Made by a program: the position numbers and the translations under genes. Shown here piece after piece: positions 5,501 to 21,072 of a stretch of DNA of 30,091 nt. The stretch is from an archaeon (GTDB taxonomy: Archaea; Nanobdellota; Nanobdellia; UBA10117), in NCBI GenBank assembly GCA_043801255.1, contig JAZDME010000026.1, positions 1 to 30,091 of the forward strand, read 5' to 3'. Each line of letters begins with the position of its first letter. Position 1 is the first letter of the stretch. Under the pieces are notes generated by a model, which was given only the letters and a program-made list of their open reading frames with translations, made no database searches and was not told the origin of the DNA.

Positions 5501-5671
5501 TGGGCCCTGACGGAATTGAACCGTCGACCTTCTCCCTGTGAAGGAGATGTCATACCATTGTCTGCGCATGGTGCATCGAGCGCAGCGAAGATGCGCCGCG
5601 TCTTTCTTTGGATGCCCAGGAGCCTTTCTTTCTGTGATGAAAGAAAGGCTGCTGCACTAGACCAAGAGCCC
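5501..5671 (-). tRNA. tRNA-Val(CAC) with 99-nt non-canonical intron at 15/16 (exons 5671-5657 and 5557-5501)
   Basis: Spliced exons give GGGCTCTTGGTCTAGTGGTATGACATCTCCTTCACAGGGAGAAGGTCGACGGTTCAATTCCGTCAGGGCCCA (72 nt) with all four stems; central helix GTCT/AGAC with 3-nt bulges AG^T and AA^T; CCA not encoded. Confidence 0.92.
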
Positions 5672-5713
5672 TTAGCTATCTTTTTATATTTGAAATTTAA
5701 AAGGATTCTTATC

Positions 5714-6976
5714 ATGGAATTAAATGGTGTCCTTAAGAATGCCGCGAAACTTGTAACACCTTCAAAAGCAGAGGAATCAGAAACCAACAAGATTGCGGAA
5801 GAAGTTATTGAAAAGGTAAATGCCTGCGCAGTTTCGCAGAAGATAAAAGCTGCGCTTCAGGCAGGCGGTTCGGTAGCGAAAGGCACATGGCTGCCGGGAA
5901 TTTCAGACATTGATTTTTTCCTGGTTTTTGACTATGACACGTTTTCAGAAAGGTCCGCAGAATTGTCAAACTATGCAGAGCGGATTTTGCGCAAGTCTTT
6001 CCGGGTCACGAGGCTGCACGGCTCACGCGATTACTTCTCGGCAAAGCACCGCAAGTACGCCCTTGAAATTGTGCCGGTTCTCGATATCAGCCACGGGGAA
6101 AAAGCAAGAAACACGACTGACTACTCTGTTCTTCACGTGCGCTGGCTTGCAAAGCAGATAAAAAAGAATCCGAAATTAAAGACCGAAATAAGGCTTGCAA
6201 AGCAGTTCTTCAAAGCCGCAGGCGTGTACGGGGCGGAATCTTACATCCGCGGTTTCAGCGGGCATGTTTTGGAGATTTTAGTTGTATATTACGGGAGTTT
6301 CACGAAGCTTGCAAAAAGCATCCTAAAGTGGAAATATCAGGAGACAATTGACATCAGGAGCTATTATAAAAATTCCAGGGATATTTTTGAAAAGCTGAAC
6401 AAGTCAAAACTCCAGAGCGCTATCATTCTTGTGGACCCTATAGAAAAAGAAAGGAATGCTGCAGCGGCTTTTGACCATGAGAGTTTCATTCTTGCAAAGG
6501 AAGCCTGCCACGAGTTTTTTGATAAACCCTCGCCGGAGTTTTTCAAGGAAAAAAAGTTTTCAGTTGAAGAGCTGAAAAAAAAGAAAAAGGAGCTCAAGCT
6601 GATTGTTGTTGACGCAGCCCGAGTTAGCGGCAAGCCGGATGTTATCGGTGCGGCGTTAAGAAAGAAATTCGAGCAGCTGCACAGCACATTTTTTGCTGAT
6701 GACTTTGTGGTGCAGGACAGCGGAAAACTGATAGAGAATAACTCTGGAAAATTCTGGTTTTATTTTGAACCAAACGCGTTGCCAGCAAAAAAACTGCATA
6801 TTGGGCCGCCCGTAAAATTTGCGGAAAATGCCCGCGCGTTCAGGAAAAAATGGAAGTCTGCCAAAGTAAAAGACGGGCGCCTGATGGTCGAGATAAAAAG
6901 GAAGTACGTGAAGCCGGAGCAATTGCTGAAAGATGTCATAAAGAAAGACAAGTCGCTAAGCTTCAGGGTTTACTGA
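5714..6976 (+). CDS. cca: Archaeal class I CCA-adding enzyme
   Basis: GGSVAKGTWLPGISDIDFF nucleotidyltransferase motif, GVYGAESYIRGFSG, LVDPIEKERNAAAA. Start moved to ATG 5714 because the listed 5495 start runs antisense through the tRNA. Confidence 0.95.
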   Translation: MELNGVLKNAAKLVTPSKAEESETNKIAEEVIEKVNACAVSQKIKAALQAGGSVAKGTWLPGISDIDFFLVFDYDTFSERSAELSNYAERILRKSFRVTRLHGSRDYFSAKHRKYALEIVPVLDISHGEKARNTTDYSVLHVRWLAKQIKKNPKLKTEIRLAKQFFKAAGVYGAESYIRGFSGHVLEILVVYYGSFTKLAKSILKWKYQETIDIRSYYKNSRDIFEKLNKSKLQSAIILVDPIEKERNAAAAFDHESFILAKEACHEFFDKPSPEFFKEKKFSVEELKKKKKELKLIVVDAARVSGKPDVIGAALRKKFEQLHSTFFADDFVVQDSGKLIENNSGKFWFYFEPNALPAKKLHIGPPVKFAENARAFRKKWKSAKVKDGRLMVEIKRKYVKPEQLLKDVIKKDKSLSFRVY

Positions 6977-6977
6977 A

Positions 6978-7469
6978 ATGTTTGACTCTCAAATAGCAAA
7001 CTGGATTCAAGGCGCCAGAGCGCCAGCATTAGATAGCTCTTTTGCGGTGGTCAGCTTTTCAATATATTTGCTTATTATGGCAGTTCTTGCATTTTATATT
7101 TACAAAAAGAAAACCCGCGAGTTTCTTGAAATATTCATGGGACTTGTAATTGTTTCCATTCTGACAGAGCTGATAAAAATGCTGGTTTTAAGGCCGAGGC
7201 CAGACCTGTCAAATAATTTTTCGTTTGTATCAAGTCATGCAGCACTCGCATTTTTTCTTGCTGCGTTCCTGCCCGTAAAAAGAGAATGGAAAATCGCCTT
7301 GTATGTATGGGCTGTGCTAGTCGCTTTTAGCAGGATCTGGCTGAATTTGCACTGGTTAAGCGATGTTATTTTCGGCGCAGGCACGGGAATTGCCACAGCG
7401 TTTCTGATAAGGTCAAAGTGGTTTCAAAAATATCTGGAAAAATTAAAAAAAAGTAGCCGGATTTTCTGA
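6978..7469 (+). CDS. PAP2-family membrane phosphatase
   Basis: K...RPRP, SSHA and SRIWLNLHWLSD motifs in a multi-TM protein. Confidence 0.88.
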   Translation: MFDSQIANWIQGARAPALDSSFAVVSFSIYLLIMAVLAFYIYKKKTREFLEIFMGLVIVSILTELIKMLVLRPRPDLSNNFSFVSSHAALAFFLAAFLPVKREWKIALYVWAVLVAFSRIWLNLHWLSDVIFGAGTGIATAFLIRSKWFQKYLEKLKKSSRIF

Positions 7470-7470
7470 A

Positions 7471-7608
7471 CTGACGCAGAGTTCTACGACTACTAACTAC
7501 GAGGGAAAAGTCTCTTGATTGGAAGCAGCAAAAACTATCTTGTTGTGAAAAGTAATTGCGAAGCCCAATAATTGAGACTTTACATTAGTCGTCGTTCGTC
7601 GTCAGTCG
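7471..7608 (+). repeat. Palindromic repeat family copy 4, between convergent genes
   Basis: CTGACG..CTACGACTACTAACTACGAGGG, core TTGATTGGAAGCAGCAAAAACTATCTTG, right arm TAGTCGTCGTTCGTCGTCAG. Confidence 0.8.
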
Positions 7609-7616
7609 ATAAGTCA

Positions 7617-8861
7617 TCAAAGCATGTCAGGGGTTAATATCTTCATATTTCTGCTTCTTCCAATTGCGCTGTGCGCTACGACGTATTTGACACCCTTGTT
7701 TTCAGCAATTGTCATAAGTTTTGGTTCAAGAATGCCGTCCATTACAATTGCAAAAACTCCGTCAGGTATGTTCTGCAAAGTGTCTTCAAGCTCTTTAACC
7801 GGAACGCGCCCGAGTATGTTAAGGGCTTCGTCAAGCACGAACGCCCCGCGGGTGCCTAACAACTCCTCAGACATGCCTTTCAGCTGTTTTTGGTTTATTG
7901 ACTTGCTGCTGCTGTAGCTGGCTGCCTGCGGCCTGCTATAACTCTGCTGCGCCGGATGGGCCGGAGCAGTAACTGCTACCTCGGCAGCTTCCATTCGCGG
8001 CTGTAATACGACTATGTCGCCGTTTTTCAACTCGCCTATCTCGCCTTTGGCCTGCTCCCATGCAATTTTCAATCTCAGGGCTTTCATTATTTCCTTTTGC
8101 GTGAGCTCTTCAACTTCCTTTCCGTCTGGAGCGCGCGCAACGAAATCCAGGTCAGTAAGTCCGGCAAGATTTTTTATAATCAAATCCCCGCCGCGGTCCC
8201 CATCACTGAACAAAGTTGTTATTTTGCGCTTTGTCAGCTCGATTATTGTATCAGTTGCCTTTGCACCTTTCAGCGCAACTACGTTTCTGATTCCGTAGCG
8301 GAGCAGATTTACCACGTCCGCGCGCCCTTCAACAATAATTACTTCCTCAGACTCCTCGACTGCAGGTCCAGCAGGCAAGCGGTCTTTTCCGTACTCGCAG
8401 ACTTCCATTGTCCTGACATTCTCTGTCAGCAAATTAGTGAAAGCCTGGCTGTCCGGCAGGTCTGTTACCAGCTTCGTTAATAACTCTCGGGCTCTTTCAA
8501 GCACGAAGTTTCGTTTAGAAATTCTGACATCTTCAATTCCAGTTATTCTTATTTTTGCGTCACACGGGCCTACTCGCTCGATAGTTTCAAGAGCAGCAGC
8601 AATTATTGCTGTCTCAGCTTTTCCCATAGAGCTTGGCAATAGAATTTCTCCTACTGTCTTTCCGCCCCGGTTCTCAAGCTTGACGTCAATTCTGCCAATC
8701 CTTCCGGATTTCTGCAGCTCCCGAAGCTCTAAATCCGCGCCCAAAAGGCCTTCAGTCTGCCCAAAAATAGCTCCGATTATATCTGGACGTTCTGCAACGC
8801 CAGTCAGCTCCATGCCTGCGTGTACTATATATTTTATTGATACTGGGCTAATTTTACCCAT
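7617..8861 (-). CDS. dnaG: Archaeal DnaG-like primase (TOPRIM)
   Basis: MGKISPVSIKY...DIIGAIFGQTEGLLG...ELQKSGRIGRI; TOPRIM IIVEGRADV and DGDRGG. Start at 8861 preferred over 8870 because of GGAG spacing. Confidence 0.95.
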   Translation of the reverse strand: MGKISPVSIKYIVHAGMELTGVAERPDIIGAIFGQTEGLLGADLELRELQKSGRIGRIDVKLENRGGKTVGEILLPSSMGKAETAIIAAALETIERVGPCDAKIRITGIEDVRISKRNFVLERARELLTKLVTDLPDSQAFTNLLTENVRTMEVCEYGKDRLPAGPAVEESEEVIIVEGRADVVNLLRYGIRNVVALKGAKATDTIIELTKRKITTLFSDGDRGGDLIIKNLAGLTDLDFVARAPDGKEVEELTQKEIMKALRLKIAWEQAKGEIGELKNGDIVVLQPRMEAAEVAVTAPAHPAQQSYSRPQAASYSSSKSINQKQLKGMSEELLGTRGAFVLDEALNILGRVPVKELEDTLQNIPDGVFAIVMDGILEPKLMTIAENKGVKYVVAHSAIGRSRNMKILTPDML

Positions 8862-8899
8862 GCTATTCATCTCCTTTTTTGTTAGAAATCACACTAAAG

Positions 8900-9007
8900 C
8901 TACTGTTTTTTCCTATTTCTAGCCAAATGTTTCTGCGGCTTGCAGGAACAACTGCATGAACATGAACATTGACAGTTCGCGTTTTTAGTAGTGATTTCTT
9001 TTACCAT
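8900..9007 (-). CDS. Small Cys-rich peptide MVKEITTKNANCQCSCSCSCSCKPQKHLARNRKKQ
   Basis: Hand-translated 35-codon ORF (ATG 9007, TAG 8902-8900), below the ORF-track cutoff; Ser codons TCA/TCA/AGT/TCC and Cys codons TGT/TGC are mixed. Confidence 0.55.
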   Translation of the reverse strand: MVKEITTKNANCQCSCSCSCSCKPQKHLARNRKKQ

Positions 9008-9150
9008 TATGTGTCAGAAGCGCATATACTAAAATTCAGCTATTGGGCAAAAGCCCATTATATGCCAGGGCAATCTGCCCGAGCGTGAATGTGAGTTTAA
9101 GCACCTCTTTCTGCTTTTTGCATGTTGTTTAGATTTAAAAACGTTTCTGA

Positions 9151-9285
9151 TGACGACTACTATAACTGGCTACAACGACGAACGGGGATATGTCTATTGA
9201 TTGTGGGAGCAAAAATCTTGCTTGTGGGACTTGTAGCGAAGCCAAAATACATGGCAATTTCCCTAGTCGTCCGTCGTAGTCGTCA
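9151..9285 (+). repeat. Palindromic repeat family copy 5
   Basis: Perfect 10-bp terminal inverted repeat TGACGACTAC/GTAGTCGTCA; core ATTGATTGTGGGAGCAAAAA and GCGAAGCCAAAATACATGGCAATTTCCCTAG. Confidence 0.88.
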
Positions 9286-9341
9286 GTAGCTCTATACAAA
9301 CAATATACTTAAATAATCCGTAATTACAAATGTAATATAAG

Positions 9342-9755
9342 ATGGCCACAGAGTTGCATTTATCTCATAGTCCCGTTCCAAGAATTAAGCGGCAGATGCG
9401 GGAGTTAAAGTCAAATGATGATGTGCACAGGCACCTGCTGCACGAGGTCATAGAATCAAACCTGAAAACGCAGCAGTCTATCGCAGAAGTGTCCAGAAGC
9501 ATCAACGATTTTGTCAATACCATAAAGTCCGTAAGCGATATCCCTGAAGAGGCGGGCGCGCAAAAACCTGCGCCCCGAGTTTCAGCTTCTGAAATCGAGC
9601 AGAAGCTTGACAGGATTGCAACACAGAATCTTCAGCTCATCGAGCTTATTTCGGAGCTTGTAAAGCACCTGAAAAAAGGGTCTGCGTCTTTGGCTCCGCC
9701 GCCAGGCCCGCAGGCATATGAGGGAACATATCCGCAGCTCAGGCAGTTAAGATGA
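9342..9755 (+). CDS. Hypothetical coiled-coil protein, coupled to first pilin gene
   Basis: 137-aa helical ORF; ATGA overlap with 9752; TATA-like CTTAAATA ~30 nt upstream. Confidence 0.65.
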   Translation: MATELHLSHSPVPRIKRQMRELKSNDDVHRHLLHEVIESNLKTQQSIAEVSRSINDFVNTIKSVSDIPEEAGAQKPAPRVSASEIEQKLDRIATQNLQLIELISELVKHLKKGSASLAPPPGPQAYEGTYPQLRQLR

Positions 9756-10306
9756 ACATATTTCCATTCGGAAGGTCAAAAAAAGCAATCTCCCCGATAA
9801 TTGCAGTTATACTGCTATTGATGATGACCGTTGCTGTCGCAGGAGCCGCATTTTTCTGGCTCTCCCGCATCCAAGGACAGATGCAGGGCGGCGTAGAGTC
9901 ATACCAGAGCAAGATTTTCGAGAATATTGCGTCACGGGTTGACGTAATTGACGCGGATTACCAAACAATCAGCAGCGTCGAATATCTTACTATTTTCCTG
10001 CACAACACAGGCAACTCAAAAATACCTGTGAGCAGCGCCGCATCATTTCCGACAACAACATGGATTCTGAAGGATTCAGACCAGGTCGCGGTATGCTCAA
10101 CAAACTGGGGAGGCGGCACAAACCAGACTGCCTGCACCGAAGGCTGCGGCTCAACAACGCAGATTGATGTGGGCGAAATACACAAAGTAGTTTTAAGGTT
10201 GTCAGGCACAACCTGCGCACTATCCCTAAAATCATCAGGCACGGTATTTTCATTCACAATTGACTTTTCAGGAAAAACCACTACGTCAGGCAGTTTTGTG
10301 AAATGA
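9752..10306 (+). CDS. Archaeal type IV pilin-like protein
   Basis: Class III signal KKA|ISPIIAVILLLMMTVAVAG (Pilin_N/DUF1628-type N-terminus). Confidence 0.9.
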   Translation: MNIFPFGRSKKAISPIIAVILLLMMTVAVAGAAFFWLSRIQGQMQGGVESYQSKIFENIASRVDVIDADYQTISSVEYLTIFLHNTGNSKIPVSSAASFPTTTWILKDSDQVAVCSTNWGGGTNQTACTEGCGSTTQIDVGEIHKVVLRLSGTTCALSLKSSGTVFSFTIDFSGKTTTSGSFVK

Positions 10307-11358
10307 TGAAATCTTCAAAAGGCATAGAGTCCATAATTGCCGTATTACTTGTGGTAATGATAACAATAGCTGCCGCAGGCAGCTTTTATTTCTGGTATAC
10401 GCGCGTCCAGCAGGAAGCCCAGGGCAGAACTGAACAGTCAACAACAAATTACCTGAAACAGCTGAACTCGTGCATAAAGTTCCCTTATTTTGAATACAGT
10501 TTATACTCAAATGAATCGTATGTACAGGTGCAGAACTGCGGTTCGATTCCAATTACAATCGGGGATGGCGATGACAATGTGCTGATATCATCCGAGCCCT
10601 GCGCATTTGCAGTTGACTCGCAGGTATGCAACATATGCCCTTTTACGGTAAACCCCGGCGCATTTAACAAATTCAAGTTGAACTTTAATCATGCAGCATG
10701 TTCAGGCACCAATGAAACAGCCGCGGATGTTTTGTCTGATGAGGGAAATGTGCAGCACACGATTTCCTTTTCAATGGATACGGCAGCCGTAACAGCAACA
10801 AAGAACTTTGAACCAACCAACAATATAATCATACCAACCAATGTAACAACATACTGGCGGGATGATTTCAACGACCTGGGCAGCTGGATAAAAACAGGAA
10901 CAGACACGATGGAAATTGTAAATGGGACCCTGCATATTTTAACAGCTTCGGACATGGCCCAGCTGACTACTAACGATATAATGTTTAGCTTTGACACAAC
11001 AAAAGACTACACAGTCAAAACAAGAGTAAAGATAGCAGGGCCATCACACTGGCTGTTCTTCATGTACAATAACGGCGTGCATCTGGTTTACGATATTTCT
11101 ACTCTCAGCTGCAGATATGGCAATATCAATACTCAGATTGCCCCGCTCACGATCGGGCAGTGGTATGATATTCAGGCAAATGTGCAGCCATCTTCCGACG
11201 TATATGATGTTTATCTTAACGGAACCCTGATGCAAACATGCAGCATGCCAACAGACAGGCTAACTGACGAGTTCCTGATCGGGGACTTTGAGGCAGGGCT
11301 TATAAATTTTGGAGAGATGTACTTCGATTACTTTGAGGTCAACAGCACGTCCGTATAA
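10303..11358 (+). CDS. Type IV pilin-like protein with C-terminal beta-sandwich (ConA/LamG-like) domain
   Basis: SKG|IESIIAVLLVVMITIAAAG; tail starts WRDDFND and includes WYDIQANV..YDVYLNG..FGEMYFDYFEV. Fold assignment is inference. Confidence 0.82.
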   Translation: MMKSSKGIESIIAVLLVVMITIAAAGSFYFWYTRVQQEAQGRTEQSTTNYLKQLNSCIKFPYFEYSLYSNESYVQVQNCGSIPITIGDGDDNVLISSEPCAFAVDSQVCNICPFTVNPGAFNKFKLNFNHAACSGTNETAADVLSDEGNVQHTISFSMDTAAVTATKNFEPTNNIIIPTNVTTYWRDDFNDLGSWIKTGTDTMEIVNGTLHILTASDMAQLTTNDIMFSFDTTKDYTVKTRVKIAGPSHWLFFMYNNGVHLVYDISTLSCRYGNINTQIAPLTIGQWYDIQANVQPSSDVYDVYLNGTLMQTCSMPTDRLTDEFLIGDFEAGLINFGEMYFDYFEVNSTSV

Positions 11359-11374
11359 CTCTCTATCCAAAGTC

Positions 11375-11394
11375 TAATCAATAATTTAATATAG
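11375..11394 (+). promoter_or_regulatory. Putative TATA-box promoter of pilin 11415
   Basis: TAATCAATAATTTAATATAG ending 20 nt before the ATG; identical 20-mer at 12387-12406. Confidence 0.6.
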
Positions 11395-11414
11395 CGGTTT
11401 TGTGACGTAACGCT

Positions 11415-12332
11415 ATGTCGTCAAAGAAAGGAGTTGATACCATAATTGCTGTACTGCTTGTGGTAATGATAACAATAGCTGCCGCAGGCAGCTTTTATTT
11501 CTGGTATATCCGAGTCCAGCAGGAAGCCCAGAGCAAGGCAGAGCAGTCAACATCATCATTTCTTACCCAGATAAACACATGCATAAAGATGCCTTACTTT
11601 TCATATAATCTTTTGACAAACACATCTGAGGCGCAGGTGCAGAACTGCGGTTCAACGCCGCTGACAATAGGCGATGGCGATGACAATGTGCTGATATCAT
11701 CCGAGCCCTGCGCATTTGCAGTTGACTCGCAAATATGCGATATATGCCCGTTTGTTATCGGACCCGGGGCGTTCGGGAAATTTAAGATGAATATGAACAG
11801 GGCAACATGCTCCGGAACAAATGTGACAGCAGCAAAGCTGCTCTCGGGCGAGGGAAACATGCAGCATAAAGTGACATTTTCAATGGAAAAATCAACAGTA
11901 ACCGCTTCGCAGAGCTTTGTTCCTGAAGCAGACGTTAAGTGCAGCGTTAATCTGAACGGCACTGCAAGCATAATTTTCCCATGGATTTCTGCACCATGGT
12001 ATGTGCTGCGTGAAGGGACTGCAGCATATAATTTATCGCTGTCCAGCAATATACCGCAGACATTTGCAATCAGCGGGAGTTTTAACCTGCCTGACTGCAA
12101 TGTTACTTATACAAACGACAGTCTTTGCCGCAGCTATAACTATCCGGATTTAAATCCGAATATGACCGCAATAGCATCAATAACTGTTAATCCGGACACA
12201 GGCGCACTGTTCCTGGGATGTATTTACTGCAGCCTTGGCGGCGATATAGGCAATTTAACAACAACAGTCAGGTCAACAGACCTTGCAACTTGCAACGAGG
12301 CAAAAACATCAACTTCAATTGATCAGAGATAA
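11415..12332 (+). CDS. Type IV pilin-like protein, paralog of 10303 with a different C-terminal domain
   Basis: KKG|VDTIIAVLLVVMITIAAAG; first ~165 aa align with the 10303 product, then diverge. Confidence 0.85.
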   Translation: MSSKKGVDTIIAVLLVVMITIAAAGSFYFWYIRVQQEAQSKAEQSTSSFLTQINTCIKMPYFSYNLLTNTSEAQVQNCGSTPLTIGDGDDNVLISSEPCAFAVDSQICDICPFVIGPGAFGKFKMNMNRATCSGTNVTAAKLLSGEGNMQHKVTFSMEKSTVTASQSFVPEADVKCSVNLNGTASIIFPWISAPWYVLREGTAAYNLSLSSNIPQTFAISGSFNLPDCNVTYTNDSLCRSYNYPDLNPNMTAIASITVNPDTGALFLGCIYCSLGGDIGNLTTTVRSTDLATCNEAKTSTSIDQR

Positions 12333-12386
12333 CAAAAACTCGCTGCAAGTTTTTGGAATGGAAAAATGCCGCGAAGCCTTTTTCCA

Positions 12387-12406
12387 TAATCAATAATTTA
12401 ATATAG
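12387..12406 (+). promoter_or_regulatory. Putative TATA-box promoter of pilin 12428
   Basis: TAATCAATAATTTAATATAG ending 21 nt before the ATG; identical to 11375-11394. Confidence 0.6.
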
Positions 12407-12427
12407 TTACTAACAGATAAATTTCTG

Positions 12428-12970
12428 ATGGCCGCGCATTTTAACAGGAAAGGCATAACTCCCATAATAGCGGCAATACTTTTGGTGATGATAGGGGTTG
12501 CAGCCGCAGGAGGCATGTTTTTCTGGCTGACAAAAATACAGAGCCAGGGGCAGGGCAATGTCGAAGGCTCAGAAAATACCCTGCTGGAAAATGTTGCAAC
12601 CTGTGTTGATATGCCCAGCGCGACATTTGACTTGACAAATAACAAGCTCAGGCTTGCAATTCAGAACTGCGGCAGCAATAAATTCATAGTTGGGGACGGC
12701 GATGACAAATTTATAATAACTCCAGAAACCTGCTCTTTTGTGCCGACTTGTTCAATGGTTACAAGCACGGTCTGCCCCATGACGTTACTGCCAGGCGCAC
12801 TCGGGCGGATGGATTTTAACACGGGCCTGATAACATGCGAAGGCTCAGCAAACGGCACGCTTGCAAGCACCATGGCAAATCAGCAGGGCGTATCGCACCA
12901 GCTAATAATCTCCATTGACAAAAAGACAACAGCTGCACGAGGTTTCGTGCCTGAAACAAGCACAGCATGA
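12428..12970 (+). CDS. Type IV pilin-like protein (third paralog, no C-terminal extension)
   Basis: RKG|ITPIIAAILLVMIGVAAAG; shares QNCGS..GDGDD..C..C core with 10303 and 11415. Confidence 0.87.
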   Translation: MAAHFNRKGITPIIAAILLVMIGVAAAGGMFFWLTKIQSQGQGNVEGSENTLLENVATCVDMPSATFDLTNNKLRLAIQNCGSNKFIVGDGDDKFIITPETCSFVPTCSMVTSTVCPMTLLPGALGRMDFNTGLITCEGSANGTLASTMANQQGVSHQLIISIDKKTTAARGFVPETSTA

Positions 12971-12974
12971 TAAA

Positions 12975-13556: not shown

Positions 13557-14206
13557 CGAAAACTGACGATGGACTAGGGCAAAGGTGTTTGATTATGGAA
13601 CAAATTGCTAAGCAATTTTTCCATTCCGCCAAATCGCTACGATTTGGCGTTAAGGGAAGCAAAAGTCCTGCCGAGAGAGAAACCCTGACACAATCAATGA
13701 GGCCCAAGCCGAACGAAGTTCGGCGGGGCGCAGCCGAAATCTCATTTCGGCTAGTGTTTTCCCCTCGTCGTAATCCGTCGTCGTCAAGAGCACAGTACTC
13801 CGTAGTCTACATGCTTGCGATTTCAGGAATACTGATTTTTTTGATGGGCGCTGTTTTTATCATGACAAGCAGTTTCCAGCGGGCAACAACCGAAAATTTC
13901 GGGCGCGAGATTCTTGGCAGCGTTACAGCGAAAATAGAAACCAGCCTGATTGAGTTTAAGGAGCTCAGCAAGAATGCAAACACGTCATCAGCAAACATAA
14001 ATATACCTGAACTTATTGGCGAGCAAAGGTATCAGGTAACAGCAAACCAGCACATGATTGAAATAAGAACATTCGGCAACCCGTCGCTGGTGCAGCAGTA
14101 TAACGTGACTTTCTGGGATGCGGATTTAGGCGGCTCTGTATTTTCTTCCAAAGGCAAGATACATGTGACATATTCTGCAGCCAACAATAAGGTGATGTTT
14201 GAATAA
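13553..14206 (+). CDS. Class III signal peptide protein with repeat-derived 80-aa leader
   Basis: ATG 13553 overlaps the upstream TGA (ATGA); SSRA|QYSVVYMLAISGILIFLMG follows the repeat-encoded leader. Confidence 0.72.
   Translation: MTKTDDGLGQRCLIMEQIAKQFFHSAKSLRFGVKGSKSPAERETLTQSMRPKPNEVRRGAAEISFRLVFSPRRNPSSSRAQYSVVYMLAISGILIFLMGAVFIMTSSFQRATTENFGREILGSVTAKIETSLIEFKELSKNANTSSANINIPELIGEQRYQVTANQHMIEIRTFGNPSLVQQYNVTFWDADLGGSVFSSKGKIHVTYSAANNKVMFE
13554..13786 (+). repeat. Palindromic repeat family copy 6 (longest, in frame inside a CDS)
   Basis: Ends TGACGA/TCGTCA; GGACTAGGGCAAAGG left, CCCCTCGTCGTAATCCGTCGTCGTCA right; several internal hairpin modules. Confidence 0.85.
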
Positions 14207-14207
14207 A

Positions 14208-14402
14208 CTGGCTGCTGCTGCGACTAACGACGACTAGGGAAAAGGATATTGATTGAGGGACAGTAAAAACTATCTTGGCTTGCGGATTAGGCAAAACATT
14301 TCAGCAAAGCTAAAATACATGGCGACCCGAGCCAACAAAGTTGGCTGGGCACAGCCGAAATCTCATTTCGGCTAGTGTTGCCCTCGTAGTCAGCAGTCGT
14401 AG
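14208..14402 (+). repeat. Palindromic repeat family copy 7
   Basis: ACGACGACTAGGGAAAAGGATATTGATTGAGGG...AAAGCTAAAATACATGGCG...GCCCTCGTAGTCAGCAGTCGTAG. Confidence 0.85.
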
Positions 14403-14446
14403 TTTGTTGCATAAATTTTTAATAGCCAGCGCCCGAGTGAGTATAG

Positions 14447-16192
14447 ATGGCCATTAACATAGCTGTGCTGCGGAACATTTTCAGAAAAGCAGAACTTGAT
14501 AAAACTGCAGCCAGGGCAAGTAAGATTACAGAGCTGCCAGCCGAACAGGCGCAGGCTCAGGAGCCAGTTACGCATGTTATTGAGCCTCTCGCAGAAGTGA
14601 AGCCTGCAGAGGTAAAAGACGAGCTTACGCCAATATCGCTTCCAAAAGTTTATGAACGGACAACGATTGCCCGCGAAGACGTTCTTTCAAGAATAAGGCA
14701 GGTTTCAGAAACATATCCGCTGATTGTAACAAAGTGGCGCGGCGCGCGCTATGTTGTTGCAACCGCAAATATTGCGTTTAATCCGGTAAGCAACCAGCTT
14801 AACTACGTGGTTGAAGAACCGCCCGTTGACAGCAAACTCAAGGAAATAATAAAAAAAACAATAGAGCTTCTGCAGAGCAGGCTGGAAGTTGACTTTTCAA
14901 CTTTGAAAGCAAAAAGGGAAGTTTACTCATTTGTTGATAAAAAGGTAACTGAAATATGGGAATATCTTCAGATAAATCCTACGCCAGAAGAGGAGCTAAA
15001 GGCAAAATACTATATTTTCCGCGATACCATCGGGCTTGGGAAAATTGAGGCGCTTATGCGCGACCCGAACATAGAGGATATCTCCGCAGACGGCGTGGGC
15101 ATTCCGGTTTTTATCTTTCACAGGAATCCGCTGTACGGCGAAATGCCAACCAACATTATTTTTAATTCGAAACAGGAGCTTGACTCTTTTGCAATGCGGC
15201 TTGCGCAGAAATCCGGAAAGACAATTTCTGTTGCCACGCCGCTGCTGGACGCAATGCTTCCGGATAACAGCAGGCTCCAGGTAACATTCGGCACTGACAT
15301 AGCGCGCAAGGGCTCTAATTTTTCAATCAGAAAATTCTTCAAAATCCCGCTCACAGTCGTGGACTTGATAAATTACGGGACAATAAGCCCGCTGATGCTT
15401 GCGTACCTCTGGTTTGCGGTTGAGGAGCAGCAGTCTGTTTTAATCACGGGGGGAACTGCAACAGGAAAAACCACTTTCCTTAATTCAATTTCACAGTTCA
15501 TACATCCTACTCTCAAAATTGTTTCAATTGAGGACACAGCAGAGTTGATGCTGCCGCAGGTAAACTGGGTTCCGCAAATTGCACGCTCAGGCTACGGCCC
15601 GAGGAAATACGGCGAAGTCAGCATGTTTGACCTTCTCAAAGCAGCACTGAGGCAGCGTCCGGATTACATAATAGTCGGGGAAGTAAGAGGAGAGGAAGCA
15701 AATGTAATGTTCCAGGCCATGGCTACCGGGCACCCGTCTCTCAGCACGATACATGCGGACAGCATGGACGCTGTTATTGACAGGCTTACAACAAGGCCGA
15801 TATCACTCCCGCTGGCGTTATTGGCGCATCTTGACATCGTGGTATTTCTGGAAAAGACAAAAAAAGCAGGCAAGTTTGCAAGGCGCGTAAGCCAGATTCT
15901 GGAAATAACAAACTACGACCGCGATTTGAACAAGCTGAAAAATGCGGAAGTTTTCAAATGGCTGCCTGCTGAAGACGAGTTCGTGGCAGAAAACAGCTTC
16001 ATCCTTGCAAGAATAGCAAAACGGCTCGGAAAAACACCGGTGCAGATAAAAGAGGAAATCCTCAGGCGCGCAGCAGTAATGCGCTGGATGGTCGAGAACA
16101 ACATCCACGGTTTTAAGGACGTTGCCCACATTATACAGCTGTATTATGTAGACCCCAAACGGCTTGCAGATATGATGGCCCAGAGGAGATGA
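14447..16192 (+). CDS. Type II/IV secretion ATPase (archaeal pilus assembly ATPase, TadA/ArlI-like)
   Basis: Walker A GGTATGKTT, Asp box SIEDTAEL, Walker B LRQRPDYIIVGEVRG, His box GHPSLSTIHA. Confidence 0.95.
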   Translation: MAINIAVLRNIFRKAELDKTAARASKITELPAEQAQAQEPVTHVIEPLAEVKPAEVKDELTPISLPKVYERTTIAREDVLSRIRQVSETYPLIVTKWRGARYVVATANIAFNPVSNQLNYVVEEPPVDSKLKEIIKKTIELLQSRLEVDFSTLKAKREVYSFVDKKVTEIWEYLQINPTPEEELKAKYYIFRDTIGLGKIEALMRDPNIEDISADGVGIPVFIFHRNPLYGEMPTNIIFNSKQELDSFAMRLAQKSGKTISVATPLLDAMLPDNSRLQVTFGTDIARKGSNFSIRKFFKIPLTVVDLINYGTISPLMLAYLWFAVEEQQSVLITGGTATGKTTFLNSISQFIHPTLKIVSIEDTAELMLPQVNWVPQIARSGYGPRKYGEVSMFDLLKAALRQRPDYIIVGEVRGEEANVMFQAMATGHPSLSTIHADSMDAVIDRLTTRPISLPLALLAHLDIVVFLEKTKKAGKFARRVSQILEITNYDRDLNKLKNAEVFKWLPAEDEFVAENSFILARIAKRLGKTPVQIKEEILRRAAVMRWMVENNIHGFKDVAHIIQLYYVDPKRLADMMAQRR

Positions 16193-16320
16193 CTACTACG
16201 GACTACGAGAGCAAAGGTCACTGATTTCGGCATCATTTTCTCAGCATGCTTGCTTTTGACTAGCTTTAATCAATGGCATTTGAACGCCGAGCGTTAGCGA
16301 GGCGCGTTCGCAGTCGTCAG
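16190..16320 (+). repeat. Palindromic repeat family copy 8 (degenerate core)
   Basis: TGACTACTACGGACTACGAGAGCAAAGG left arm starting at the ATPase stop; right arm CAGTCGTCAG. Confidence 0.7.
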
Positions 16321-16359
16321 CGTAAAACTTAATACTGCCTTTAAATTCTAGATTTAGTA

Positions 16360-17241
16360 ATGGCCGCCAGTTCAAACATATATGCGCAATCATTCGGTTT
16401 ATTCAGCTCCATAGTCAAAAAGCACGAGAGTTTTTTCCAGCCGCTGCAGGACGACCTGAGAAAAGCGCACATCACAGTTCCGACAGAGCACTGGGCAGCA
16501 TTTACCATATTTGTGGCGGTTATGACGTCAATACCAGCTTTCATATTCTGCCTGATGTTTGCAGTCGTCGGCATGGGTTTCGGGCTGTCTGCGGTACTCG
16601 TGGGAATCTGCGCAGGCTTAGGCATAACTGCAGGCTCATTTTTTCTGGCGTATAAATACCCGTCCCTGGCAGCAGACGAGCGGAAAAAGAAAATCGAAAA
16701 CGCGCTTTCATTTTCAACAATTTACATGTCAACCATAGCGCGTTCAGGATTTCCGCCGCAGGAAATCTTCCGCCTTCTGGGCGGATTTACGGAATACGGC
16801 GAAGTTGCGAAGGAAGCAAGAAAAATATCCTCAGACATTAACGTGCTGGGGCTCGATGTGTCTGCAGCGCTGAACATGGCTGCGGCAAGAAGCCCGAGCG
16901 CAGACTGGACAGAGCTTCTCGCTGGGCTGAAAACAACAATCAATGTCGGCGGAGACCTTGGCAGTTTTCTTTCGGAAAAAGCAAAAGGATTTGTCGCGGA
17001 TTACAGGCGCAGGCTGAAGGACTTCAGCAATATGCTCAGCCTGCTGGTTGAAGTTTATATCACTCTGGTAGTTGTAGGAGTTGTATTTTTCATTGTTACA
17101 ACATCGGTAATGGTTGCAATAGGCGGCGTGCCAGTCGAGCTGATAAAAATGATAAATTACGCGCTGGTGCTGGTGGGAATGCCGATAATTACAGCAGCGT
17201 TCATATTAATCATAAAAGGAATTTCGCCCCTGGAGGCTTAG
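16360..17241 (+). CDS. T2SS-F/TadC-like pilus platform protein
   Basis: Multi-TM; ERKKKIENALSF...YMSTIARSG, GEVAKE..KI..DINVLGLD, TINVGGDLGSFL pattern next to the ATPase. Confidence 0.9.
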   Translation: MAASSNIYAQSFGLFSSIVKKHESFFQPLQDDLRKAHITVPTEHWAAFTIFVAVMTSIPAFIFCLMFAVVGMGFGLSAVLVGICAGLGITAGSFFLAYKYPSLAADERKKKIENALSFSTIYMSTIARSGFPPQEIFRLLGGFTEYGEVAKEARKISSDINVLGLDVSAALNMAAARSPSADWTELLAGLKTTINVGGDLGSFLSEKAKGFVADYRRRLKDFSNMLSLLVEVYITLVVVGVVFFIVTTSVMVAIGGVPVELIKMINYALVLVGMPIITAAFILIIKGISPLEA

Positions 17242-18429
17242 ATGGATAAACACAAGAGCAAGGACAAAACTGAATTTTTGGAAAAAGTAGAGCGCGAAAT
17301 CCTTGGAATTTACAAGCATAAATTTACAGTGCTTTTGGCAACGCTGCCAGTGCCCGTATTGCTGGCATTGGCAGCTTACCTGCTTGGCAGCACAAGCACA
17401 ACTGTTGTTGCTGTTCTGTCACTGGGATTGGTTTTTGTGCTGGTGCCGTATTCGCTGATAAGCTTTCTTGAGTTCAGGGAAATCAAGGCAGCAGAAGACA
17501 GTTTTCCGGCTTTTCTCAGGGATATAGCGCAGTCCGTGGCAGCAGGCATGACCATACCGCAGGCTGTTGCAACAGCGTCGCAGACAAACTACGGGGTTTT
17601 GTCAAAGTATGTGCAGAAACTTAATGCAATGCTTTCGTGGAGCATGCCTTTCCCGGACGCATGGGCGCGCTTTACAACCACATTGAAAAGGTCATCAATG
17701 ATAAGCAGGATAAACGCAGTCGTTCTGGAGTCATTTTATGCCGGCGGCGAGATAGGCACGGTTCTCAGTTCGCTGGCGACAGACGTAAACATGCTGAAGC
17801 GCATGGAATCTGATAAAAAATCAATGATGCAGGAGCATGTTGCAGTAATGTACTTTGTATTTTTCATATTTCTGGGAATAATAATAGGCCTGCACAAAAT
17901 TCTTGTCCCGATTTTATATGTGCAGAAACTAGGGGTTTTCGGCGGGCTTGCCCTGCGCCCCGCGGAAGTTATAACCGTTGAATATTTCAAATCGCTTTTT
18001 TTTGTCATGACTCTGATACAGGCAGTAAGCATCGGCGCCATCGCGGGGCAGATAGCTGAAGAAAGAATTATCGCGGGCTTGAAGCACGTTGTAATAATGG
18101 TCGCCGTAGGCATGGTTGCATTTTTCATTTTTGTTTTTCCGTCTACAATGACGCTGGACGCAGAAGTATTTCCAAGCACGCCGGCAATCGGACAGCATAT
18201 TTCAATCAGCGGCTCGGTAACCTTTGATGCGCAGCCTGCGTCAGGCGCGCAGGTGCAAATCATGCTATCAGACAACACGGCGCAGTCAGTATTTACAGAC
18301 GGGCTGGGCCAGTTTGATACTATTATTACCGCGCCCACTCAGCCCGGGCAGTATACAATTATGATTTCAGTAACTTACTCAGGAGAAACAAAGGTACTTT
18401 CAAAAGCAATTGCAGTGGGGATGGCATAG
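17242..18429 (+). CDS. Second T2SS-F/TadC-like protein with C-terminal Ig-like extension
   Basis: EDSFPAFLRDIAQSVAAGMTIPQA, ESFYAGGEIGTVL; ~90-aa beta-rich tail after the last TM helix. Confidence 0.88.
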   Translation: MDKHKSKDKTEFLEKVEREILGIYKHKFTVLLATLPVPVLLALAAYLLGSTSTTVVAVLSLGLVFVLVPYSLISFLEFREIKAAEDSFPAFLRDIAQSVAAGMTIPQAVATASQTNYGVLSKYVQKLNAMLSWSMPFPDAWARFTTTLKRSSMISRINAVVLESFYAGGEIGTVLSSLATDVNMLKRMESDKKSMMQEHVAVMYFVFFIFLGIIIGLHKILVPILYVQKLGVFGGLALRPAEVITVEYFKSLFFVMTLIQAVSIGAIAGQIAEERIIAGLKHVVIMVAVGMVAFFIFVFPSTMTLDAEVFPSTPAIGQHISISGSVTFDAQPASGAQVQIMLSDNTAQSVFTDGLGQFDTIITAPTQPGQYTIMISVTYSGETKVLSKAIAVGMA

Positions 18430-18454
18430 GGAAATAATCTGGAAATATGTCAGC

Positions 18455-18562
18455 AACGACGACTACTAGGGCAAAGCGCATTGATCCGGGCATCGGAAAC
18501 TCTCGGGGCTGGCAGTTGGTGCTCCCCCAAACAATAACAATAACCTAGTCGTCCGTCGTCGT
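18455..18562 (+). repeat. Palindromic repeat family copy 9
   Basis: ACGACGACTACTAGGGCAAAG left; CCTAGTCGTCCGTCGTCGT right. Confidence 0.82.
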
Positions 18563-18572
18563 AAAACAAAAA

Positions 18573-19418
18573 ATGTCAATAAAACAAAACCGCAATGCAC
18601 AATCGCCCGCCGAATTTATCATAGTTGTTTTTCTTTTTCTAATAATACTTATTTCGGTTTTCACAACGTTTATGACAAAACTCCGCCCGGAGATTGAAAA
18701 AGTGGTTGAGCAAAAAGCATGCCTGAAAGCAAGCGGTTTGGCCACGTACGTATTGAAAGAGCCCGGCTCGCCCTCAGCATGGACACCAGCGAATATTCAG
18801 ATATTCGGGCTGACTAACGGCACAGATGATATTATATCTTATGACAAGTGGCTTGCTGCGCAGGGCGCAGGCAATGCAGTCATAAGCAGAAAAGTGGTTC
18901 CCGACACAAGCTTTCTGCTCGGATATTCAATTTATGCTTTTAAGCCAGATGTTGCAGACACATGTCAGGCAGTAAATGGAACCGTGATTTGCAGGACTGG
19001 CACAGTCATACACATTACTTCGATATCTGCTTCTCAGGCAACACTTAACTTGAAACTGTTTTTCCCGTTCAGCACGGCAGCAGCAACCACAGGAACTAGG
19101 GAATCTGATGATACTGTTACAACAAGCAGCTCAAGCGGCACTACCATGACTATTGCGCTGCACACAAGCGCATCAGATTCGGACACGTTTGATATATCCC
19201 TGTCGGCATATCCGCGCCTGGCTTTTATACAGGAAGCAGACCACAAAACGTCCGGAGGAGTGAGCCTGCCGATTTTCATAGGAAACACTTCTGCAGTTGA
19301 AAGTTTCGGCTCCGCAACAACAGGCGTAAACAATTACTGCGAGGCAGAGCGTGGAGCGGACATTCTGGGAAAGAGTAATGAGCTTTTCCCGGCGAGGTTC
19401 AGCATACTGGCATGGTGA
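18573..19418 (+). CDS. Class III signal peptide protein (minor pilin-like)
   Basis: MSIKQNRNA|QSPAEFIIVVFLFLIILISVF with Glu at +5; C..A..LA..LLKEPG.P..W pattern. Confidence 0.8.
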   Translation: MSIKQNRNAQSPAEFIIVVFLFLIILISVFTTFMTKLRPEIEKVVEQKACLKASGLATYVLKEPGSPSAWTPANIQIFGLTNGTDDIISYDKWLAAQGAGNAVISRKVVPDTSFLLGYSIYAFKPDVADTCQAVNGTVICRTGTVIHITSISASQATLNLKLFFPFSTAAATTGTRESDDTVTTSSSSGTTMTIALHTSASDSDTFDISLSAYPRLAFIQEADHKTSGGVSLPIFIGNTSAVESFGSATTGVNNYCEAERGADILGKSNELFPARFSILAW

Positions 19419-19999
19419 TGGATATTACGGCTGGAGAGGTTTATGAACGAGGGCAAAGGGTATTGATTAAAGGCAGCCAGCGCCATCTCGATTGGCGAGC
19501 ATGGAAGACCGAAGCCATAACCAATGACCATTCCCCCCGTCGTCGTAGTCGTCGTTTAAACAAGAAGGGATTTTTTTATTTTGTGGAAGTAGCGCTTATC
19601 GGGATGCTGCTTATTACATTCTTTTTCGTATTTTCGCCAAAGGCGGAAACCAGCTATCAGGGCCTGCAGGATGCCAGAAATCTGAAACAGGCAGGATACG
19701 GAACTTTAAAATCACTTGATGACACAGGCGTACTTTCCGCGTATATAGATCCCAGCACAATGGCAAATTCAAATTTCGCAGCGCTTAAAACCTACATAAG
19801 TGCAGCCCTGCCAGAAGCAGTTTATTCGCAGATTGAATACGCCGAAAGCTCAACATCCTGCTATTCAGAAACAGGCGTCAGCAGAAGCTGCGGCTTGAAT
19901 GTAACAAACTTGAAAGCTGATGTGATAAGGGCAGATTATACTTATTCCAAGCGCCCGTCGCCAATAACCATACATATCTTTCTCTGGAGGGCGCTATGA
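19418..19999 (+). CDS. Class III signal peptide protein with repeat-derived 51-aa leader
   Basis: TGATG overlap with upstream stop; NKKG|FFYFVEVALIGMLLITFFF follows the repeat-encoded leader. Confidence 0.75.
   Translation: MDITAGEVYERGQRVLIKGSQRHLDWRAWKTEAITNDHSPRRRSRRLNKKGFFYFVEVALIGMLLITFFFVFSPKAETSYQGLQDARNLKQAGYGTLKSLDDTGVLSAYIDPSTMANSNFAALKTYISAALPEAVYSQIEYAESSTSCYSETGVSRSCGLNVTNLKADVIRADYTYSKRPSPITIHIFLWRAL
19425..19555 (+). repeat. Palindromic repeat family copy 10 (in frame inside a CDS; left arm degenerate)
   Basis: GAACGAGGGCAAAGGGTATTGATT, GAAGCCATAACCAATG, CCCCCGTCGTCGTAGTCGTCGT. Confidence 0.78.
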
Positions 20000-20805
20000 C
20001 TTGTGACGACGAACGGCTACGACGACTACGATTGATATCTCCATTGATTGAGGGAAGAAATGCTATTCCAGTTGACGAGAGCAAACATGACGCTCAGCAA
20101 AAGCCAAATACATGGCGATTGCCCTCGTCGTTTAGTCGTCGCTTCAGCAGCAGGGGGCAGTTCATGATTGTAACAATAGTCCTTATAGGGCTCGCATTTT
20201 TCACGATGTTCCTTCTTGTCAGGACTGCCGACAGGAATGCAGTTGTAATGTTTGAACAGCCAGAAGCAGCAGCAAATTTTGAGAACCTGCAAAATGCCAT
20301 AATACACAGGAACAGCTGGATGCAGGATTACTGGTGGAATCTTAACTGGGAAAATCGGGCAGCCATAAACATAACCGAAGGTGCGGAAAATCCTGTGATG
20401 GTAAACGCAGGAATTCCCGGAGGGACAAACTGCAACGGGGAAGTCCGCGTTGTAAATTCAACTGGCGCAGAGCTGAAATCAAATGTCAACTCAGAGCAGT
20501 CTCCGTGCAACGTTATTTTTACGGCGGACACAACAGGCATATACTATGTTTACTGGAATAATCCGGAGGCTGTAGCGCCTTCTTACAGAGTCGAAGTCCA
20601 GTCTGAAGGAAATGTGCCTGCAAGATACAATATCTTGGGAGAGGTTTCACCGAAGTCAAAATTCTGCCCCAATTTTGAAAATATTTCACTGGCAGCGGAA
20701 GCGCAGCTGGACTGCGGTATCCAGAGCATCATAAACAACAAAAAGGTCAACTATAAGATAGATTATGCTTCCACGGATTTTTCGTTCTCGGGATATTTGA
20801 GTTAG
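19996..20805 (+). CDS. Class III signal peptide protein with repeat-derived 54-aa leader
   Basis: ATGA overlap with upstream stop; SSRG|QFMIVTIVLIGLAFFTMF follows the repeat-encoded leader; WWNLNWENR.AINI segment downstream. Confidence 0.75.
   Translation: MTCDDERLRRLRLISPLIEGRNAIPVDESKHDAQQKPNTWRLPSSFSRRFSSRGQFMIVTIVLIGLAFFTMFLLVRTADRNAVVMFEQPEAAANFENLQNAIIHRNSWMQDYWWNLNWENRAAINITEGAENPVMVNAGIPGGTNCNGEVRVVNSTGAELKSNVNSEQSPCNVIFTADTTGIYYVYWNNPEAVAPSYRVEVQSEGNVPARYNILGEVSPKSKFCPNFENISLAAEAQLDCGIQSIINNKKVNYKIDYASTDFSFSGYLS
20004..20141 (+). repeat. Palindromic repeat family copy 11 (in frame inside a CDS)
   Basis: TGACGACGAACGGCTACGACGACTACG, ATTGATTGAGGGAAG, AAAGCCAAATACATGGCGATTGCCCTCGTCGTTTAGTCGTCG. 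Confidence 0.85.
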
Positions 20806-20853
20806 AATGAGGCAAAGCAAATTGCTATTTGCTAGTCCCATTTACTTCGTAAA

Positions 20854-21072
20854 TGAGGCCGCTCAGATTTGAACTGAGGTTGCGCAGTGTTTCTACACAT
20901 ATAGCATCCAAGTTTTGCAGGATTGGAAATCCTGCGCCTCTCTTTTGGGATGCCACGGAACCTTTTCTCTCGCGAGAGAAAAGGGAGTGTGCCCGAACCG
21001 CGAGTCCTTTGCTGCAAAGCAAACTAGCCAAAAGCTAGTTTTTGGCTCTGTACCAAACTAGACTACAGCCCC
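20854..21072 (-). tRNA. tRNA-Pro(CGG) with two introns: 43 nt at 20/21 and 103 nt at 37/38 (exons 21072-21052, 21008-20992, 20888-20854)
   Basis: Spliced exons give GGGGCTGTAGTCTAGTTTGGTAGGACTCGCGGTTCGGGACTGCGCAACCTCAGTTCAAATCTGAGCGGCCTCA (73 nt), full cloverleaf. Both junctions form relaxed bulge-helix-bulge motifs, each with one mismatch in the central helix; the first junction could shift by 1 nt. Confidence 0.88.

Follow-up and report, generated by a model that had tools for sequence, protein, structure and literature searches.

Introns of archaeal rRNA and tRNA genes with bulge-helix-bulge (BHB) junctions, like those that give rise to the metazoan tRNA intronic circular RNAs (tricRNAs), are excised by an endonuclease at BHB-like motifs, after which the exons are ligated, and the released introns are often circular. 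How archaeal tRNA genes gain such introns is an open question, and the 2026 census of tRNA introns in Asgard archaea identified no general route of arrival. In the Thermoproteales, related introns found at different positions of different tRNAs have been read as intron transposition (Sugahara 2008 and Fujishima 2010, as relayed in PMC4090602 and bioRxiv 10.64898/2026.10.13.758758). Here we analysed a 30,091-nt stretch of archaeal DNA (the window; contig JAZDME010000026.1 of assembly GCA_043801255.1, GTDB lineage Nanobdellota, Nanobdellia, UBA10117) in which a tRNA-Val(CAC) gene and a tRNA-Pro(CGG) gene each carry an intron that is a copy of one multi-copy element, apparently a mobile, self-folding repeat of tiny DPANN archaea lodged in tRNA and rRNA genes.

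As in the Thermoproteales, related introns occupy different positions of different tRNAs within one genome (Val, Pro, Asp and Ile here), at BHB-capable positions and in company with an endonuclease of predicted broad specificity. Unlike the Thermoproteales introns, the element has DPANN hosts from several lineages, is ~100 nt long with a conserved multi-helix fold and a third strand that co-varies with it, and also occurs in 23S rRNA, beside the ends of 5S rRNAs and tRNAs and at the starts of protein genes, some copies being flanked by duplications of 16–31 nt. Endonuclease excision at a BHB-like motif followed by ligation, as in BHB introns and tricRNAs generally, is predicted here from sequence; ordinary BHB introns, in contrast, lack a conserved internal fold common to different genes. 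No description of the element was found in Rfam or in the literature searched.

Both tRNA genes lie on the minus strand. ARAGORN in default mode called no tRNA in the window, and no Rfam family matched it at the gathering score. In-silico removal of 5558-5656 (99 nt, in the D-loop after tRNA position 15) gave a canonical 72-nt tRNA-Val(CAC) by ARAGORN, and tRNA-Pro(CGG) was regained by the same program once 20889-20991 (intron 2, 103 nt, at the canonical position 37/38) and an upstream intron of ~42 nt that is unrelated to the element were taken out. A first-pass annotation of the window had noted 15 identities in an 18-nt segment common to the two introns; the quoted 18-mers do mismatch at three of 18 positions, and the similarity extends beyond them over the full length, with a global alignment score of 56.5, where 2000 dinucleotide shuffles gave 21.3 ± 5.0 and at most 43 (z = 7.0), and a local alignment z of 6.7. 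The shared order of parts described there (splice helix, pyrimidine/purine hairpin, GGCATCC, purine tract, GC-rich inner hairpin, GATGC) recurs in both introns. A score above dinucleotide-shuffled controls and further homologues had been proposed as the test of kinship, and both were found: the search that the annotation called for, made with an nhmmer profile and covariance models, brought up two additional copies in this genome, and relatives yielded more than 150. The kinship of the Val intron with Pro intron 2 is thus real, both being copies of one multi-copy element.

Each copy, ~90–110 nt long, is predicted to comprise from 5′ to 3′ a short closing helix (h′), a hairpin (P1), a turn bearing the 5′ strand of a second helix (P2), a purine tract (Pu2), a variable region (P3) and the P2 3′ strand. 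The BHB motif is built jointly by the helix h′ and by four nucleotides that complement the upstream exon (H′); P1 is a 10–12-bp hairpin whose 5′ arm consists of pyrimidines only and whose 3′ arm (Pu1) consists of purines only; Pu2 is an 8–10-nt purine tract that follows the P2 5′ strand, mirrors Pu1 and is the parallel complement of the pyrimidine arm; and P3 consists of one or more variable hairpins between Pu2 and the P2 3′ strand. In the window these parts lie as follows, all on the minus strand, with stems assigned from the minimum free energy (MFE) fold, family covariation or sequence reading as stated.

5501-5671 (minus): tRNA-Val(CAC) gene, called by ARAGORN after intron removal; exon 1 at 5657-5671, intron at 5558-5656, exon 2 at 5501-5557; a partial Rfam tRNA match lies at 5509-5563.
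5558-5656 (minus): Val intron, 99 nt, D-loop; one element copy, 59.9 bits with model R2.
5650-5655 (minus): Val h′ 5′ strand GCAGCA, partner TGCGC at 5564-5568 with one bulged A; sequence reading.
5639-5650 (minus): Val P1 pyrimidine strand AGCCTTTCTTTC; MFE fold and family covariation.
5621-5632 (minus): Val P1 purine strand, Pu1, GAAAGAAAGGCT; MFE fold and family covariation.
5611-5617 (minus): Val P2 5′ strand GGGCATC; P2 swap test.
5602-5609 (minus): Val third tract, Pu2, AAAGAAAG; mirrors Pu1 and complements TTTCTTTC in parallel orientation.
5581-5600 (minus): Val P3, inner GC-rich hairpin; MFE fold.
5570-5577 (minus): Val P2 3′ strand GATGCACC.
5560-5563 (minus): Val H′ AGAC, 4/4 pairs with exon GTCT (tRNA positions 10-13), the central BHB helix; sequence reading.
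5558-5559 (minus): last Val intron bases AA, within the 3′ bulge.
20854-21072 (minus): tRNA-Pro(CGG) gene with two introns, called by ARAGORN after removal of both; Rfam tRNA match at 20854-20962, 25 bits.
20889-20991 (minus): Pro intron 2, 103 nt, position 37/38; one element copy, 68 bits with model R2.
20987-20990 (minus): Pro h′ 5′ strand ACAC, partner GTGT at 20895-20898; sequence reading.
20975-20984 (minus): Pro P1 pyrimidine strand CCTTTTCTCT; MFE fold and family covariation.
20961-20970 (minus): Pro P1 purine strand, Pu1, AGAGAAAAGG; MFE fold.
20948-20956 (minus): Pro P2 5′ strand GTGGCATCC; MFE fold.
20938-20946 (minus): Pro third tract, Pu2, AAAAGAGAG; mirror of Pu1, asymmetric and therefore informative for mirror against direct order.
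20917-20935 (minus): Pro P3, inner hairpin GCAGGATTTCCAATCCTGC; MFE fold.
20901-20909 (minus): Pro P2 3′ strand GGATGCTAT; MFE fold.
20891-20894 (minus): Pro H′ AGAA, 3/4 pairs with anticodon-loop TTCG (positions 32-35); sequence reading.
21005-21050 (minus): Pro intron 1, ~42 nt, in the D-arm/position 20-25 region; many alternative borders satisfy ARAGORN.

For the comparative analysis, 151 non-overlapping copies were gathered and oriented. Because MAFFT alignments shifted the low-complexity tracts out of register, the model was seeded with two same-register copies and the rest were realigned by Infernal. In 93 aligned copies, 98.5% of P1 cells are paired, and U-A to C-G double changes occur at all ten pairs (166 cells), a level of covariation reached by none of 500 shuffles. 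The P2 pairs vary among copies (GGGCATC/GATGCCC, CAGGAAT/ATTCCTG, ACGAAACC/GGTTTCGT, GCTTATCC/GGATAAGC). An initial P2 test, a best-helix search against shuffled 5′ strands, had an oversized search space and was replaced by a swap control, in which a copy's own 5′ strand out-paired foreign ones in 101 of 131 copies. P1 and P2 are maintained by compensatory change, and the earlier observation that pairing is kept while stem sequences differ holds for both helices across the family.

The purine tract between the P2 5′ strand and P3, which the first-pass annotation took for a linker, turns out to be a third strand that co-varies with P1. Of 136 unique copies, 118 have a Pu2 that mirrors its partner exactly, whereas shuffling the partners gives 29.3 ± 3.8. 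Where the mirror and direct-repeat strings differ (112 copies), the mirror is present in 95 and the direct string in two, and in none of the 112 does the direct model give the longer exact run. There are 35 distinct tract variants, 30 of them with a perfect partner, and 1116 of 1128 tract positions place A opposite U-A and G opposite C-G, a count in which the first six positions served to locate the tract. The turn from Pu1 to Pu2 measures 13–16 nt in 104 of 131 copies. Orientation and code together, as read from these sequences, are the signature of a purine-motif (antiparallel, reverse-Hoogsteen) triple helix. The third strand most likely forms such a helix, which would compact the element and join its ends for BHB recognition, and the helix may also stabilize the excised RNA.

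Two groups of described structures are closest to this signature. The bacterial intrastrand triplex DNA repeats PIT (Hoyne/Maher) and TMECO/BoxC (Holder et al. 2015, PMC4666352) have the same pyrimidine-purine-purine order and purine-motif code, and they too are abundant dispersed repeats, patchy between close relatives. They are G/C-rich (CCCTCNCCC...), have loops of 1–6 nt, lie in intergenic DNA of Proteobacteria and Cyanobacteria and have been studied as DNA, whereas the element is A/U-rich, has a second loop that bears a helix strand, belongs to a larger RNA-type fold and sits in transcribed stable-RNA genes of archaea. Judged by the definition of ITxF repeats, the element has the three blocks (pyrimidine, purine, purine) with purine-motif triples, but departs from the ITxF/TMECO loop length of 1–6 nt and from the consensus (CCCTCNCCC..GGGNGAGGG..GGGNGAGGG) in its 13–16-nt second loop and its A/T-rich tracts. 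The other group comprises natural RNA triple helices, namely the element for nuclear expression (ENE) with its A-rich tract in MALAT1 and PAN, telomerase RNA and the SAM-II and preQ1-II riboswitches (PMC7583470), in which a hairpin or pseudoknot helix is joined by a third strand of the same RNA, as is predicted here; such helices have been tied to RNA stability or compaction (PMC7583470). Their third strand is a U-rich pyrimidine strand parallel to the purine strand (U-A-U Hoogsteen), whereas that of the element is purine and antiparallel to Pu1 (A-A-U, G-G-C), which sets it apart from the pyrimidine-motif class with its U/C-rich, parallel third strands. According to the 2020 review (PMC7583470), the antiparallel purine motif is established in no natural folded RNA.

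The host genome is represented by a 683-kb assembly (73% complete, 43.7% GC) with four copies of the element, in tRNA-Val at 15/16, in tRNA-Pro at 37/38 and in the T-loops of tRNA-Asp(GUC) and tRNA-Ile(GAU). Relatives retrieved with its DnaG protein are labelled Nanoarchaeia, Woesearchaeota and DPANN. The Asp and Ile copies were recovered by a profile built on the Val and Pro introns, and the tRNA-Ile copy is a 161-nt version. A sequence-independent scan for a pyrimidine/purine hairpin followed by a mirror purine tract retrieved the same four copies and three lower-quality matches, two of them homopolymer-like and one a tRNA-Ser intron; on shuffled genomes it gave no matches. The tRNA-Asp gene (L001, G000:C27:4600-5100) holds three introns, at ~7/8, at ~26/27 and in the T-loop, and its T-loop intron repeats AAAATCTCGG, the same letters as the exon sequence 3′ of that intron. 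The tRNA-Ser intron (~109 nt; L003, G000:C37:1700-2300) has the reverse layout, in which a single purine tract, GAAAAAGGG, goes with two pyrimidine tracts, CCTTTTTCC and CTTTTTC; this layout could fit a pyrimidine-motif triplex, although the case is single and its tract symmetric, and hence uninformative. In this genome ARAGORN found two tRNA genes when no introns were allowed and 13 once it could place canonical introns up to 200 nt long, and the Rfam tRNA model gave 18 matches, mostly partial. Since the element interrupts their genes, most tRNAs of such DPANN genomes are missed by standard finders; incomplete tRNA predictions have been noted in DPANN genomes, as have endonucleases whose inserts broaden their specificity.

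A covariance model of the 50-nt 5′ module gave 15–31 matches per genome in eight relatives of 0.5–1 Mb. Carriers make up 11 of the 39 genomes of the order (E up to 1e-6), with high copy numbers in four genera of the window's own family and in two other families; within the same 39 genomes the element was not found in the 11 of family f4 or the six of f7. When 151 genomes were sampled evenly across the class, matches were confined to this order. One exact variant, searched across about 185,000 species genomes, occurred in 19 stretches, all in DPANN metagenome-assembled genomes (MAGs) and including five labelled Micrarchaeota and one labelled Aenigmatarchaeota; the commonest exact variant had no match in viral contigs. 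Two Micrarchaeota-labelled genomes hold 15 and 8 copies, mostly in tRNA T-loops and with an identical type of 5′ module; their DnaG proteins are 52–55% identical over part of their length, against 63% over the full length within the order. Several of the Micrarchaeota-labelled T-loop introns (L142, L146, L134, L140) are composite, a full element being followed by one or two partial modules that resemble the P2 5′ strand plus purine tract (e.g. GAACCCCAAAAGAAAAC) and have no hairpin of their own.

The hosts of the copies were assigned by boundary-free brute-force excision, which assumes no splice motif and which took the place of an earlier test (strict BHB geometry plus ARAGORN with introns) that had returned few, partly spurious hosts. 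For at least 40 copies, taking out the one element leaves a continuous tRNA, and the junctions fall in D-, anticodon- and T-loops; because multi-intron hosts fail this test, 40 is a lower bound. In the tRNA-His(GUG) gene of one relative (L050, G006:C25:50880-51880, positions 327-703), three copies occupy the D-, anticodon- and T-loops (342-446, 468-566 and 588-689; 105, 99 and 102 nt). They amount to 306 nt of intron in a 72-nt tRNA, and splicing out all three in silico yields a canonical tRNA-His with G-1. In tRNA-Val(CAC) the element lies in the D-loop here, whereas two other genera have it in the anticodon loop. Matching to tRNA-model hits was possible for 14 copies, and all of them have the same orientation as the tRNA; this cross-reference gives too low a count of hosts, since the interruptions hide most tRNA genes from the model.

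By Rfam, one copy lies within an archaeal 23S rRNA, two lie 5–10 nt beyond the 3′ end of complete 5S rRNAs and two occupy the 5′ leaders of complete tRNAs; further copies are placed directly upstream of small protein genes. The first-pass annotation had envisaged a mobile or functional structured RNA family riding in tRNA introns. The family, its many tRNA positions and its marks of mobility are borne out, and its confinement to introns or to tRNAs is not. Among the copies of a Pacearchaeota-labelled genome (G023), L114, L115, L117 and L123 have another conserved 3′ module in common, AATCGCTCRCTMATCAGYTCGCTCTA, and several copies there lie in intergenic DNA with no recognizable RNA gene.

Excision restores canonical RNA, as in BHB introns, for Val, for Pro, for the further copies recovered by brute force and for tRNA-His, and both window introns can be read as having a relaxed form of the BHB motif, whose full form has two 3-nt bulges on either side of a 4-bp helix between exon end and intron 3′ end, with helices flanking it. 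At the Val junction, the GTCT/AGAC helix has 4/4 pairs and h′ has 5 bp with one bulged base, and the outer exon-exon helix is weak; at the Pro junction, TTCG/AGAA (3/4) stands beside h′ ACAC/GTGT. Many copies did not pass a strict-geometry BHB search, and relaxed motifs are accordingly frequent. The genome encodes a catalytic subunit of the tRNA-splicing endonuclease EndA (G000:C64:837-1574, minus strand; 245 aa; Pfam tRNA_int_endo_N and tRNA_int_endo), whose best solved relative is 3IEY_A, the alpha subunit of the Nanoarchaeum equitans heterotetramer. From its sequence it appears to be of the broad-specificity type, one catalytic subunit having been found in a 73%-complete genome in which the partner subunit was not searched for. 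With this endonuclease the host would remove the introns.

A subset of copies is flanked by slightly diverged direct duplications of host sequence (31, 31, 30, 28 and ~24 nt), or by duplications of 16–19 nt where the repeated piece is a tRNA 5′ end; the scores of these duplications reach z = 17. In these copies (L059, L122, L043, L097, L010, L108, L110 and L118), either a gene start or the 5′ end of a tRNA has been duplicated, and the upstream copy of that piece has decayed (e.g. ATGTGA in L097). The arrangement looks like a target-site duplication of variable length, was matched to no known archaeal mechanism and suggests insertion at the DNA level. Most copies inside tRNAs have no flanking repeat, and their 3′ end complements the exon just upstream. 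A copy number of 13–31 per genome in some relatives, changing tRNA positions across genera, patchy lineages and flanking duplications all support mobility.

Taken as a whole, these observations are best explained, with reasonable probability, by a mobile, self-folding DPANN element of ~90–110 nt that lives mainly as a BHB intron in stable-RNA genes. Within the host transcript, the element would fold into a compact core of hairpin and third strand with P2 stacked at its base. This compact fold would bring the intron ends together, so that a broad-specificity endonuclease could cut a relaxed BHB motif wherever the element had landed; the exons would then be ligated and the element would leave as a stable, probably circular, RNA. 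New copies would arise by an insertion process that duplicates 16–31 bp of target, and would survive at sites from which splicing can remove them or which fall just beyond the mature RNA. The more specific proposal, that the RNA forms an antiparallel purine-motif helix of 8–10 triples (A-A-U/G-G-C) as the working part of a new class of endonuclease-removed, target-duplicating mobile elements, is put forward tentatively and falls somewhat short of an even chance.

Several observations weigh against this account. We infer splicing, circularization and RNA folding alike from sequence, and no mobilizing enzyme was found among the 39 genomes of the order, in which reverse transcriptase and Cas1 each occur in two, unlinked to carrier status. 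One copy (L105, G018:C6:2770-3520, element at 347-397) lies directly against the start codon of an opposite-strand gene, with the gene-start duplicate on its far side and a perfect mirror tract; being antisense, it is not spliceable from that gene's transcript. A truncated copy lies in frame within a 579-aa Elp3-like radical-SAM open reading frame (L007, G016:C23, about 1495-1590), in a variable linker missing from the ortholog of the window's genome (G000:C51). It comprises the 5′ half (P1, P2 5′ strand, Pu2 and P3), the P2 3′ strand and the closing helix being missing, and it may be translated and not spliced. With 82% A opposite U-A, the tracts are rich in A, and other compositions make for a more stable purine motif. 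The non-Watson-Crick cells of P2, counted for wobble pairs that would tell RNA from DNA, comprise 16 G-U, 8 A-C and 17 others, a tally that favours neither. In-vitro evidence on the entry of RNA strands into purine-motif triplexes is conflicting, and folded RNAs use the pyrimidine motif (PMC7583470). Because the copies are related by descent, the permutation statistics overstate their independence; the 35 co-varying tract variants are the sounder measure.

The same signature could arise if the triplex forms in DNA, the element being a non-autonomous repeat, similar to miniature inverted-repeat transposable elements (MITEs) or BoxC, that adopts an intrastrand purine-motif triplex during replication, transcription or transposition. 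The structure would then serve insertion or recombination, with copies surviving in RNA genes only where they are spliceable or outside the mature RNA. The strand order (pyrimidine stem, loop, purine stem, loop, purine stem) is also the one that defines bacterial TMECO/BoxC, a marker of unstable loci whose DNA adopts a triplex in vitro (PMC4666352), and purine-motif triplexes are established for DNA and contested for RNA. The flanking duplications of 16–31 nt likewise point to an event at the DNA level, and the perfect mirror tract is kept in leader and trailer copies and in the antisense one. Against a DNA structure stand the co-orientation of all 14 cross-referenced copies with the host RNA, the extra RNA-type helices (P2 and h′) with G-U pairs and compensatory change, the tailoring of the 3′ end of each intron copy to its own upstream exon, and a second loop far longer than in DNA triplex motifs. 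A DNA triplex on these grounds is unlikely, if by no means negligible, and the two folds are not mutually exclusive.

Some euryarchaeal tRNA-Trp introns carry C/D-box RNAs, and a fold that serves the host, the excised intron acting as a functional small RNA (a guide, a regulator or a protein sponge), would account for the strong conservation of structure across distant lineages. That metazoan and archaeal tRNA introns can give rise to stable circular RNAs would also be in keeping with such a role. However, Rfam covariance models run on three copies with E up to 1 reported tRNA only, so that the comparison with Rfam that had been recommended assigned the element, in the window and in these copies, to no known family even at a permissive threshold. 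The Val and Pro introns show neither C/D nor H/ACA boxes, and with no Rfam match a guide RNA of either type was rejected. Copies range from none to about 30 between related genera, the element was not found in whole families, and copies also occur at gene starts and as fragments; this variability and patchiness indicate the behaviour of a selfish element rather than of a housekeeping RNA, and a host function is accordingly improbable. A two-state switch, in which the pyrimidine arm would pair in Watson-Crick fashion with Pu1 and Pu2 in turn, as near-symmetric tracts such as Val TTTCTTTC would permit, is the least credible reading by far and was rejected on the mirror orientation of Pu2, since only 2 of the 112 informative copies have the string that antiparallel pairing would require, against 95 with the mirror, and the direct model never has the longer run.

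Under the favoured reading of a mobile element removed as a BHB intron, the consequences reach beyond this genome. The comparative evidence for a purine-motif triple helix, three-way covariation across 35 tract variants, is unusually strong. Should the helix form in RNA, the element would settle the long dispute over natural RNA purine-motif triplexes: it would be the first such RNA from nature and, among known RNA triplexes, the one best supported by covariation. Because the family is recognizable, high in copy number and traceable from site to site, with target duplications still visible, it makes intron gain directly testable and, if the account is correct, would provide a concrete mechanism for the origin and spread of archaeal tRNA introns.

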